Of a stretch of DNA of 64,000 nt, positions 5,519-48,923 are shown one piece after another. Numbering within the stretch: position 1 is the first letter of the stretch; each line of letters opens with the position of its first letter. This DNA is from Elusimicrobiota bacterium (GTDB lineage Bacteria; Elusimicrobiota; Elusimicrobia; Elusimicrobiales; UBA9959): assembly GCA_037137395.1 (NCBI GenBank), contig JBAXKK010000003.1:541-64540 (forward strand), given 5' to 3'. A program made the position numbers and the translations under genes. The notes beneath the pieces are model-generated. The model worked only from the letters and a program-made list of their open reading frames with translations, made no database searches and was not told the origin of the DNA.

Positions 5519-5613
5519 AAGTAAGTTATAAGTTTTAAGTAGTAAGTGGTAAGCGGGTAAAGTTTTTAAAATTAATCCTTAAAACTTAATCCTTAACACT
5601 TACTTCTTGCCAC
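5519..5613. repeat. intercistronic imperfect inverted repeat (GTAAGT/TAAGG word family)
   Basis: aagtaagttataagttttaagtagtaagtggtaagcgggtaaag / tttttaaa / attaatccttaaaacttaatccttaacacttacttcttgccac. Lies between rpsH and rpsN. Confidence 0.65.
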
Positions 5614-10658: not shown

Positions 10659-10739
10659 GGGATTCAAGATTTAAGATTCCGGATTTAAGATTGCGGAACC
10701 GTTTTTAATCTTGAATCTTCAATCTTTAATCTTCAATCC
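10659..10739. repeat. intercistronic ~33-bp imperfect hairpin (AAGATT word family)
   Basis: Left arm is gggattcaagatttaagattccggatttaagatt. The reverse complement of the right arm is ggattgaagattaaagattgaagattcaagatt, matching at all but a few positions. Lies between rplB and rplW. Confidence 0.75.
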
Positions 10740-15615: not shown

Positions 15616-15671
<56 letters not shown>

Positions 15672-18640: not shown

Positions 18641-19243
18641 CTATTTGCTAAGGCCGGGCAGAACAAATTGTATCGGCCGGTCGCGGTTAGGAACATACTT
18701 GATCACTTGCAGCTGTTTTCCGCCGGTGCAGAGGTAATCGTAACCATTATTGCAGGCTTCGCCGTACGGGGCGGCGCATACCACCTGCCTGGGATACTTA
18801 CACAACATCCTAATCCCGGCCGGGTCGGTCTCAATAGTCAGGGTCACCACGTTCCAGACCTGGGTCCGCACGACTTCGAGCGTAAATGTGCGCAGATTAA
18901 GAAATTTTTTAACCGATGGCGTGTCAAACCCGACATAGCCTCTGACCTTGTCTTCGATATCCCTTCTAAGCCATGGATCGTCCCAATTGGCGGCGAACTC
19001 GGCGCTAAGATGGGATTCCAACTGCCAGCGGCGGGCGGCGTAATATGAACCAATCTCCATCTTCTGCACCAGAACCAGCAGTGCGAACATCTTGGCCGTC
19101 ATGAATACAACCAGCATGAAGATTGGGAACAGCAGGACGACTTCGGTCATGGCTTGTCCTTTCCGGCTCCGCCGGAAAGGACGCCATAGGCCATAGGCCG
19201 TATGCTTTAAGCTTGTTATTATTTTGGATAATTTCATCTGCAT
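18641..19243 (-). CDS. TadE-like pseudopilin
   Basis: N-terminal RKGQAMTEVVLLFPIFMLVVF (TadE/TadG-type hydrophobic N-terminus); ATG preceded by AAGGTG. The leader MQMKLSKIITSLKHTAYGLW is shared with the flp gene at 20846. Confidence 0.7.
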   Translation of the reverse strand: MQMKLSKIITSLKHTAYGLWRPFRRSRKGQAMTEVVLLFPIFMLVVFMTAKMFALLVLVQKMEIGSYYAARRWQLESHLSAEFAANWDDPWLRRDIEDKVRGYVGFDTPSVKKFLNLRTFTLEVVRTQVWNVVTLTIETDPAGIRMLCKYPRQVVCAAPYGEACNNGYDYLCTGGKQLQVIKYVPNRDRPIQFVLPGLSK

Positions 19244-19289
19244 TTCAGCACCTTATCTGCATATGGCTTATGGCCTAAAGCATATGGCA
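19183..19289. repeat. imperfect inverted repeat (GCCATAGGC / GCATATGGC word family) bracketing a start codon
   Basis: Left arm is gccataggccataggccgtatgctttaagc; right arm is gcatatggcttatggcctaaagcatatggc. A stem of ~12 bp is possible (gtatgctttaag with cctaaagcatat). The SD and ATG 19243 lie between the arms. Confidence 0.6.
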
Positions 19290-19293
19290 TTGT

Positions 19294-20573: not shown

Positions 20574-20846
20574 TTAAGTGGGCTTGCCGGCGCCCATTAC
20601 CATGCCAATCAAACTAAACATCCCGCCCAGAATTTTTTTATGAAACAGTATCCCGATTATCAGCGTCATTCCGACAACCACGGCCAGCATAAGGAGATAC
20701 TCCACCGTGGTCTGCCCCTTCCGGAATATACGGGGAGGGCGCGCGAAACCACACGCAGCAATACAAGTTAAGCCATAGGCCATAGGCCATAGGCCATAGA
20801 CATAATGCTTTAAGCTTTTTACTGTTTCGGATAATTTAATCTGCAT
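20574..20846 (-). CDS. flp: Flp-family prepilin (third copy)
   Basis: G/XXXXEY processing motif RKGQTTVEYLLMLAVVVG. The long leader starts at ATG 20846 (SD AAGG); an alternative in-frame ATG lies inside the heptamer repeat. Confidence 0.75.
   Translation of the reverse strand: MQIKLSETVKSLKHYVYGLWPMAYGLTCIAACGFARPPRIFRKGQTTVEYLLMLAVVVGMTLIIGILFHKKILGGMFSLIGMVMGAGKPT
20772..20799. repeat. heptanucleotide repeat (GCCATAG)x4 inside the flp leader coding region
   Basis: The coding strand reads CTATGGC x4 and encodes YGLWPMAYG. Each unit carries an ATG, so ATGs occur in all three frames. Confidence 0.9.
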
Positions 20847-20908
20847 TTTTAAACCTTGTCCGCCTATGGCGCACAGCCTACAACTTATGGCGGTTTTTTC
20901 CCTACTAT

Positions 20909-20937
20909 CTTATACCACCAAAACAGGCCGTTTTCAA
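20909..20937 (-). promoter_or_regulatory. sigma70-type promoter for the flp/tadG/tadE satellite cluster
   Basis: The minus strand reads TTGAAA (20937-20932), a 17-nt spacer, then TATAAG (20914-20909). Confidence 0.5.
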
Positions 20938-38839: not shown

Positions 38840-39079
38840 TTACTGGTTGCCGCCGCCGGAACCAAGAGATCCGGCCGCTCCGTTAATCATGCCCTGGATC
38901 TTGGTGAATAGCGCCGGCATATAATTCTTGAGAGCCATACCTGCTATAAGCACCACGCCAACGACTACAGCCAACATCAACAGGTATTCCACGGTGTTCT
39001 GCCCTTTCCTGTTTTTTGCCGCCAGCCGGCCATAGGCCTGTGATACGATGCCAACGCACATGGTGAACAGTCTGTTCAT
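38840..39079 (-). CDS. flp: Flp-family prepilin
   Basis: NRKGQNTVEYLLMLAVVVGVVLIAG (G/XXXXEY motif); 79 aa; Gly-rich C-terminus. Confidence 0.8.
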   Translation of the reverse strand: MNRLFTMCVGIVSQAYGRLAAKNRKGQNTVEYLLMLAVVVGVVLIAGMALKNYMPALFTKIQGMINGAAGSLGSGGGNQ

Positions 39080-44714: not shown

Positions 44715-44813
44715 TTAAGGGGTAAGGATTAAGCGATAAGAATTAAGTTCTAAAGCCCTTCTCGCTTACCACTTAATCCTTACTGCTTATCGCTTACACC
44801 TTATAACTAGTCT
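44715..44813. repeat. 5'-UTR imperfect inverted repeat, AAGGATTAAG family
   Basis: ttaaggggtaaggattaagcgataagaattaag ttctaaag cccttctcgcttaccacttaatccttactgcttatcgcttacacctta. Confidence 0.7.
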
Positions 44814-47764: not shown

Positions 47765-47850
47765 AGAAGGATTAAGCGATAAGGATTAAGTTTAAAAAAC
47801 CTGCTTCTTACCCCATTGCCACTTATTCCTTACCACTTAATCCTTACTAC
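47765..47850. repeat. imperfect inverted repeat, AAGGATTAAG family
   Basis: agaaggattaagcgataaggattaag tttaaaaaac ctgcttcttaccccattgccacttattccttaccacttaatccttactac. The right end abuts the tsaD stop. Confidence 0.7.
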
Positions 47851-48923
47851 TTACCCGGCCAGGAAACTACGGCCAGGTCGGGGGCTATGTCCAGCGACCC
47901 GCCGGTAGCCCGCGCAGCAAGCCGCCTGGCGCCGCAAAGAGCCACCATGGCGGCGTTATCTGTGCAGTAGCGTTTTTCAGCAAATTTAATTTCGTATCCG
48001 GATTTAGCGGAGAGTTCCATGAACTTCCGCCTTAAACGCAGATTGGCGGCGACGCCCCCCCCGACTATCACGCTTTTTATTCCTGTATCAGCGCAAGCCC
48101 TGGCAGTTTTATGGACCAGCGTGTCAGCGACCGCCTCTTCAAAAGCAAGACATATCCTCCCCCGGTCCGCAGGGGACGGGCGCAGTCTTTTTTCATAAAA
48201 ATCGTTGCCCAGCATATCTCTGAGTTTATAAGCCACGGCCGTCTTCAGACCGCTGAAAGAAAAATCAAAACTGTCTTCCATATATGGTCTGGGGAAGTCA
48301 AAGCCGGACGGCCCGGACTTTAAAGCTTCCTTCTCCACCGAAGGCCCGCCGGGATACTCAAGCCCCAGCAGTTTAGCCACCTTGTCAAAAGCTTCTCCGG
48401 CGGCATCGTCCCTTGTGCGCCCCATTACCTTATACCTGCCGTATCCTTCGGCTGTCCAGAGTTCGGTGTGCCCGCCTGAGACGATCAGGCCTATGCATGG
48501 GAATTTGATGCGCCTGGACGCGGTCATGCCCTCATATTCATAGGCCAGAAAATGCCCTTCCAAATGGTTCACTCCCAGAAGTTTGGCGCCTAGAAGCCTG
48601 GCCGCGGCCTCTGCCGCCACTCTGGACACCAGAAGCGCGCCCGGCAGTCCGGGGCCTCTGGAGAACGCCACAGCGTCTATCTTAGGTCCTCTAAGTCGGC
48701 CCCCGACAAAGAAAGGTCTGCGGTAACCGGCCTTCGAAAGAGCGGCGCCTAGCACCCAGGAAATCTTCTCAAGGTGCGCACGGCTGGCCAGCTCCGGAAC
48801 AACGCCGCTGTATTTTCTGTGAAGATCTATCTGGGAGAAAATAATATTTGAGAGCAGGCGGCCGTCATCCAGCAGACAGACCGAGGTCTCATCGCACGTG
48901 GTCTCAAACGCCAGTATTCTCAT
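47847..48923 (-). CDS. tsaD: tRNA N6-adenosine threonylcarbamoyltransferase
   Basis: MRILAFETTCDETSVCLL...SGVVPELASRAH...GVNHLEGH...VSGGHTEL...GGVAAN. Confidence 0.93.
   Translation of the reverse strand: MRILAFETTCDETSVCLLDDGRLLSNIIFSQIDLHRKYSGVVPELASRAHLEKISWVLGAALSKAGYRRPFFVGGRLRGPKIDAVAFSRGPGLPGALLVSRVAAEAAARLLGAKLLGVNHLEGHFLAYEYEGMTASRRIKFPCIGLIVSGGHTELWTAEGYGRYKVMGRTRDDAAGEAFDKVAKLLGLEYPGGPSVEKEALKSGPSGFDFPRPYMEDSFDFSFSGLKTAVAYKLRDMLGNDFYEKRLRPSPADRGRICLAFEEAVADTLVHKTARACADTGIKSVIVGGGVAANLRLRRKFMELSAKSGYEIKFAEKRYCTDNAAMVALCGARRLAARATGGSLDIAPDLAVVSWPGK

Follow-up and report, generated by a model that had tools for sequence, protein, structure and literature searches.

Many bacteria have an excess of heptanucleotide repeats whose role is unexplained. 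In Neisseria, the opa genes carry CTCTT repeats in the region coding for the signal peptide, and these tracts are long and polymorphic in length both between and within strains. In neuO of the Escherichia coli K1 prophage CUS-3, an (AAGACTC)n array located in the 5' coding region comprises 2-93 units, varies between isolates and switches expression (PMC3046976). The (ATCTTTC)n repeats of Haemophilus influenzae hmw1A/hmw2A are part of a 5'-UTR hairpin that is processed by RNase III (PMC12721329). Intergenic heptamer SSRs and inverted heptamer pairs have been described as well, such as GGGAATC in Xanthomonas and GGGGAYT in Nostoc (PMC4692102), the cyanobacterial STRR, and the TAACTGA heptamer of marine Beggiatoaceae, whose forward orientation has stop codons in all frames (PMC4679880). 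Our literature search retrieved no account of heptamer repeats in Elusimicrobia, and none of flp genes subject to phase variation.

Here, we analysed a flp gene of an Elusimicrobia MAG (genome G000; 2.70 Mb, 174 contigs) that carries an array of this kind, with a unit not divisible by three, in the 5' coding region of a gene for a surface structure. The gene lies in the window, by which we mean the whole stretch of 64,000 nucleotides that was examined. The features around its start are the following:

20772-20799, minus (coding) strand: perfect heptanucleotide array (CTATGGC)x4, forming codons 16-25 of the prepilin leader (YGLWPMAYG) and the 3' arm of a predicted hairpin, this arm reaching 20801

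20574-20846, minus strand: Flp-type prepilin ORF of 90 aa, with the leader at 20715-20846 (44 aa, ending in RKG) and the mature pilin (QTTVEYLLMLAVVVG...) at 20577-20714

20854-20857, minus strand: Shine-Dalgarno-like AAGG, 7 nt upstream of ATG 20846, kept in all alleles and located in the predicted hairpin loop

20862-20891, minus strand: 5'-UTR arm made of four degenerate inverted units (GCCATAA GTTGTAG GCTGTGC GCCATAG GC), complementary to the array with many G-U wobbles

20909-20937, minus strand: promoter-like block TTGAAA-N17-TATAAG with TGG before it, conserved upstream of flp orthologues family-wide

Read on the plus strand, positions 20772-20799 are 4.0 copies of GCCATAG with 100% matches. 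All four units are identical in DNA, without synonymous scatter. The window contains four occurrences of the two-unit 14-mer, where dinucleotide shuffles would lead one to expect 0.01. A sequence-only reading of this DNA had reported the array and its translation as YGLWPMAYG, which the perfect match on the minus strand confirms. It had also pointed out that every unit contains an ATG, the one second from the 3' end being in frame with the mature pilin, and that the gain or loss of one unit would shift the frame of the long leader; our translations agree on both counts. The ATGs of units 1-4 cover all three frames, and that of unit 3 (M22) shares the pilin frame. With three units, the computed ORF from ATG 20846 has 23 aa and is terminated by a TAA immediately behind the tract, and with five units it has 71 aa and is out of frame; in both cases, the ATG of the penultimate unit is still in the pilin frame. 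Independently of its length, (CTATGGC)n is devoid of stop codons in any frame.

The ORF reads MQIKLSETVKSLKHYVYGLWPMAYGLTCIAACGFARPPRIFRKG (leader), then the cleavage site and QTTVEYLLMLAVVVG... The junction ...RIFRKG|QTTVEYLLMLAVVVG displays the features of a class III signal peptide, with a leader ending in G, a hydrophobic N-terminus, E at +5 and Y at +6, and the G|Q cleavage site is invariant in the alignment of flp homologues. Residues 42-66 of the prepilin match PF04021 with 23.6 bits against a cut-off of 23.7 (E 4.8e-5), while a profile search of the ORF with PF04964 gave no match. The homologues have precomputed PF04021 hits, and two of them are named at source class III signal peptide-containing protein (P0029) and Flp pilus assembly pilin Flp (P0020). 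A prepilin peptidase is encoded in the genome (PF01478, 57.8 bits, contig C62). The genome also harbours the flp gene of the main operon (window ~38873-39046, minus strand; G000:C3:39413-39586), whose leader of 26 aa, MNRLFTMCVGIVSQAYGRLAAKNRKG|Q, contains the word GCCTATGGCC once, and a third flp on contig C16, with a leader of just 10 aa.

Four alleles of the locus could be compared: that of the window, which equals a Logan contig of SRR8517160; L029 from ENA, which equals L030 from JGI; L031; and L033, with matches in the GTDB sister species G001 and in a JGI contig. The leader frame from ATG 20846 is open in all of them. At the family level, flp orthologues have long leaders of 30-45 aa, most of them without the CTATGGC repeat. 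The N-terminal part of these leaders shows conservation at the protein level (for example MRTRLSDIFLDIRLRIAVFGFR... and MKIRLSDLLTAIKLRVVVCGFR..., compared with MQIKLSETVKSLKH..YGLW in the window), and a module of the form M-x-I/R-K/R-L-S-D/E...I/L-K... is conserved in many Elusimicrobia Flp proteins lacking this repeat. Judging from these conserved sequences, the tract is most probably translated, from ATG 20846. One could argue instead that the array is untranslated 5' UTR and that the true start is M22 or a codon downstream, the open frame upstream being accidental. In this genome, most arrays seemingly located inside ORFs fall within codons 1-20 of maximal ORFs, a sign that the starts may be over-extended, and accidental read-through is easy for an array that is open in all frames. 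However, allele L031 has lost M22 (ATG to ATA; PIACGL instead of PMAYGL in the window), and downstream of it neither a conserved alternative start nor any other in-frame ATG could be found. AAGG is conserved 7 nt before ATG 20846. Moreover, the N-terminal module is conserved as protein across genera in leaders without repeats, and a tadE-like gene with a similar leader, described below, offers no second start ahead of its G|Q site. An untranslated array thus seems highly improbable to us.

A block of the form cTTGAAA-N17-TGGTATAA(C/G) is found upstream of flp throughout the family (L010-L026 sites), with its end about 60 nt before the ATG. A strict consensus sigma-70 scan did not call TTGAAA-N17-TATAAG, because its -10 element ends in C/G (G here), and it is for its conservation that we call the block promoter-like. 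If it acts as the promoter, both arms of the hairpin would be transcribed. In L023 (G021) and L038, long arrays, (GGTGACT/GGTAACT)x~10 and (CCGGATA/CTGGATA)x~8, are located directly upstream of flp, where relatives carry the promoter-like block.

In its coding geometry, the flp tract resembles neuO: a heptanucleotide array follows closely on the start codon, the frame is maintained at certain unit numbers only, and three units make one heptad (RLKTQDS in neuO, YGLWPMA in flp). With opa, it shares a repeat that is not a multiple of three, placed in the disposable N-terminal leader of a surface protein. The sequence-only reading had proposed that copy number toggles between a long-leader form and a short-leader or untranslated-leader form started at the penultimate-unit ATG, in other words that the tract is a slipped-strand contingency switch. 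Its anatomy and frame arithmetic stand; its function as a switch does not find support in the comparison of copy number among strains and MAGs. The tract measures 28 nt in all four alleles, as read from assembly consensus sequences, despite a divergence of about 5-12% in the surrounding DNA, and this comparison extends over at least five assemblies, two GTDB species and about 20 contigs carrying these proteins. In L031, the tract reads CTATGGC CTATGGC CTATAGC CTGTGGT, so that three point substitutions have occurred at constant length. We did not detect any short-leader, off-phase or seven-unit in-frame product among 60 homologue clusters (about 20 contigs for the four alleles), and a metagenome pattern scan that allowed 2-6 units retrieved one contig only, with four units. 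The protein P0021 (61 aa, MVYGLF...) was considered as a natural short-leader form and rejected as a miscalled start, its DNA having an upstream ATG and a 30-aa leader.

The intergenic arrays of the same genome behave differently. Using the sister genome G001 as a control for array lability, we found that the perfect intergenic (GCCGTAA)x8 array at window 15616-15671 has about two units in G001, where the region as a whole is of similar length. A search for exact records of the S41-like protein encoded next to this array gave no match. An (AGTATTT)x9.4 array has four units fewer in G001, a (GCTTTAG)x9.4 array measures about 1.5 units there, a neighbouring array is longer by one unit, and G001 lacks a 150-nt array block. 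Intergenic arrays thus change by 1-8 units between G000 and G001, with whole-unit turnover for four intergenic copies. The intergenic class is labile and the flp copy is held constant, which is as expected if its frame, and possibly the symmetry of its stem too, is under selection. Among more distant congeners, the flp of G004 carries three units (...FLKPMAYGLWLSGRPFRPGRKG|Q) and that of G002 carries 3+4 degenerate units, both in frame with an upstream ATG; unit number therefore changes on evolutionary time scales, filtered by the reading frame.

Taken together, several observations could still favour the slippage switch, namely the position of a unit not divisible by three in the 5' coding region of a surface-fibre gene, the whole-unit gains and losses of arrays of the same class over evolutionary time, the congeners with 3 or 3+4 units, and the precedents of neuO (PMC3046976) and hmw1A (PMC12721329). 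Furthermore, the upstream ORF of a three-unit variant would end at a TAA 9 nt after the in-frame ATG, which makes re-initiation conceivable. They have to be weighed against the constant length in diverged alleles of two species, the lack of off-phase products in the homologue clusters, the loss of the rescue ATG in L031 without any change in length, and the lack of an SD in front of that ATG. In addition, four units are few compared with 2-93 in neuO and at least 11 in hmw. Unlike neuO and opa, whose tracts vary, flp showed no length polymorphism in the alleles compared. We therefore regard such a switch as quite unlikely. In the best reading of these data, the tract does not look like a working on/off switch and is not a contingency locus. 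The intergenic copies, which drift in length when the flp copy does not, serve here as an internal control, and the case cautions that repeat arithmetic alone is insufficient for calling phase variation.

The flp tract is not an isolated repeat. The genome contains 34 perfect arrays of at least three units with period 7, compared with 3, 2 and 3 at periods 5, 6 and 9, respectively. At periods 7, 14 and 21, TRF detected 397, 95 and 27 arrays, respectively, built from many different units, and we estimate the size of the heptamer array family in G000 at about 400-500. The roughly 10% of the genome outside crude ORFs contains 62% of the arrays. An inverted partner within 150 nt was present for 134 of the 247 stronger arrays (54%), against 39-54 in reversed or complemented controls; the typical element is therefore a foldback with heptamer-built arms. 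Arrays of the GCCTATG type are located upstream of unrelated genes (rpiB-like, nth, a cyclase). They are shared by several genera of the family, but a search of 16 genomes from the two sister families found none. The CTATGGC unit is present at five other loci of the genome. The flp tract thus belongs to a genome-wide, mostly intergenic and mostly inverted-pair heptamer family. Further examples can be seen at window 10661-10738, 5520-5602, 44715-44804 and 47767-47853. We also noticed arrays deep inside two giant ORFs of 4903 and 2528 aa (G000:C4:42670-42702 and G000:C50:16822-16933, respectively), where they are apparently translated.

This family shares with the intergenic heptamer SSRs of other bacteria a dispersed, mostly intergenic and genome-wide excess of 7-nt arrays, some of them in inverted stem-loop pairs, many of them just upstream of start codons, and changing by 7-nt increments between relatives. 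It differs from them in its phylum, Elusimicrobia, in having many unit sequences without a dominant one, and in that the flp copy is read as protein. Unlike TAACTGA, CTATGGC has no stops in any frame. By these affiliations, the flp tract belongs with the intergenic heptamer arrays and inverted heptamer pairs, a class that is poorly understood. Its coding geometry recalls that of neuO and its hairpin geometry that of hmw1A, and it appears to work like none of the proven switches.

The four array units match the four degenerate units of the 5' UTR, and the flp transcript is therefore predicted to form a 28-bp stem. Folding of the RNA from 20908 to 20755 produced this stem between array and UTR arm with an MFE of -48.1 kcal/mol (z -2.9, no shuffle equal), compared with -37.7 kcal/mol for the antisense strand. 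The predicted loop, of about 60 nt, contains the SD-like AAGG, AUG 20846 and the first 15 codons. The same stem was obtained for the window, L029 and L031, and a similar but register-shifted one for L033. In the stem alignment of the four alleles, 99.1% of the cells are paired. Ten of the 11 variable stem pairs are still paired, by one-sided changes between G-C or A-U and G-U, and one is broken by a transversion; no double compensatory change was seen in the four alleles, the pair changes that were kept being one-sided transitions to or from G-U. Folds computed for other unit numbers indicate that exactly four units fill the UTR arm. Three units give a shorter stem (-39.9 kcal/mol), whereas a fifth brings little gain and begins to pair into the SD region. 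In congeners, the UTR hairpin is absent from G002 and L038 and partial in G004; in G016, the flp array, made of a different heptamer unit, pairs with the 5' UTR too.

Like the hmw1A repeat, the flp tract is a run of heptamers near the 5' end of a gene for an adhesin or fibre; it is presumably transcribed as well, and is predicted to form one arm of a long hairpin. The hmw repeat is untranslated, constitutes the left arm, has at least 11 units in variable number and pairs with a G-rich arm that is not repetitive, whereas the flp repeat would be the right arm, lies inside the ORF, is fixed at four units and pairs with degenerate copies of itself. The presence of an inverted partner also distinguishes flp from neuO, as does the fate of the repeat peptide, which stays in the enzyme in neuO and would be cleaved off in flp. 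By inference, such a hairpin would also exist in the living cell and act on mRNA stability or initiation, and the foldback arm may in this way tune mRNA stability or translation of flp. For foldbacks between co-oriented genes genome-wide, we found no bias in folding energy between sense and antisense strands (38 versus 33, p 0.64), and the foldback of the tadE-like gene is more stable on the antisense strand. Selection at the RNA level is therefore not general in this family. If the hairpin does regulate pilin synthesis, the hmw1A principle would hold in coding sequence and in environmental phyla as well; otherwise, flp would be a clean example of selfish foldback repeats that are tolerated and reshape N-terminal leaders.

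These data establish the position of the tract, its translation frame, its family membership, the constancy of its length and the pairing conserved in four alleles. To explain them, we consider it probable, though by no means assured, that flp contains a fixed four-unit heptamer foldback arm that has been absorbed into a translated and cleaved Flp prepilin leader, with a hairpin round the translation start. In this scenario, the 3' arm of a heptamer foldback repeat would have been taken into the prepilin ORF as part of its long leader. Translation would begin at ATG 20846 and read through the array, and the prepilin peptidase would then cut at G|Q, after which the leader is discarded. The array would be tolerated in the leader because it has no stop in any frame and because the leader is discarded at G|Q. 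In the transcript, the four array units would pair with the four degenerate inverted units of the UTR into the 28-bp stem. Selection on the reading frame, and probably on arm symmetry too, would hold the tract at exactly four units, which therefore makes it a fixed cassette rather than a slipping contingency tract. In flp, a heptamer repeat would thus be read as protein in a disposable pilin leader and also form a predicted mRNA or DNA hairpin around the start codon.

It could also be proposed that selection acts on the peptide, YGLW being a functional leader motif and the DNA periodicity a by-product of codon duplication. The peptide AYGLW is indeed kept despite synonymous differences in P0005 (GCT TAC GGG TTG TGG) and G002 (GCT TAC GGC TTA TGG). 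It stands immediately before RPFR..RKG|Q in the tadE-like protein and in several Flp proteins, its first three residues, AYG, occur in the leader of the main-operon flp, and YGLW aligns with FGFR/SGFR of other lineages at the same place. On the other hand, the four units of the tract are identical at the DNA level, and the same units form noncoding arrays upstream of unrelated genes. Furthermore, the heptamer units of other lineages, and hence their peptides, differ at the same leader position. The flp leader of L039:527-787 contains (CCTTTAT)x3-4, encoding PLSFILYPSSF; that of G016 (L017) a CCCTATC-type array, encoding SLPYPLAPIPYTL; and that of G020 (L015) CCTTCAG/CCTTCAT. Some peptide-level constraint on AYGLW is plausible from these alignments, but as an explanation of the whole array, peptide selection appears unlikely.

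The presence of different heptamer units at the same mid-leader position in at least three Elusimicrobia lineages invites a broader interpretation than the absorbed foldback arm favoured above. A lag-7 identity of at least 0.64 was observed in 7 of 20 orthologous leaders, compared with 6.7% of 135-nt segments from the same loci, these seven leaders not being phylogenetically independent and representing about three unit types. It is tempting to imagine that heptamer foldback arms in prepilin leader codons are a recurrent device, in which a hairpin over the SD and AUG gates pilin synthesis, while frame and arm symmetry lock the unit number. Gating might then involve cleavage by RNase III, on the model of hmw1A, or melting of the hairpin in response to a signal. 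We put this forward as a tentative and rather doubtful extension.

A parallel to the flp leader is provided by the tadE-like pseudopilin gene of the window:

19183-19199, minus strand: 2.4 units of the CTATGGC heptamer, located in the tadE-like pseudopilin leader (ORF 18641-19243) and coding for AYGLW immediately ahead of RPFRRSRKG|Q

19259-19290, minus strand: degenerate heptamers in inverted orientation (GCCATAT/GCCATAA type) that make up the corresponding hairpin arm in the 5' UTR of the tadE-like gene

The two units noted earlier at 19183-19196 are thus part of a slightly longer array. The tadE-like pseudopilin starts with the same module as the Flp prepilin (MQMKLSKIITSLKHTAYGLWRPFRRSRKG|QAMTEV), and a 63-nt DNA match of 86% identity is found, within the genome, only in these two genes, which also share the same layout of array and UTR hairpin. 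An Rfam search returned nothing, save a chance miRNA-hairpin match (E 0.39) on the tadE-like foldback. In L031:5381-5524, the allele of window 19100-19243, another sequence (MKFISGKFLKSVWPMAYSLWRPFR...) stands in place of the N-terminal module of the tadE-like leader. The array there comprises four degenerate units against 2.4 in the window, with the frame kept. Leader modules seem to have been exchanged at the heptamer array.
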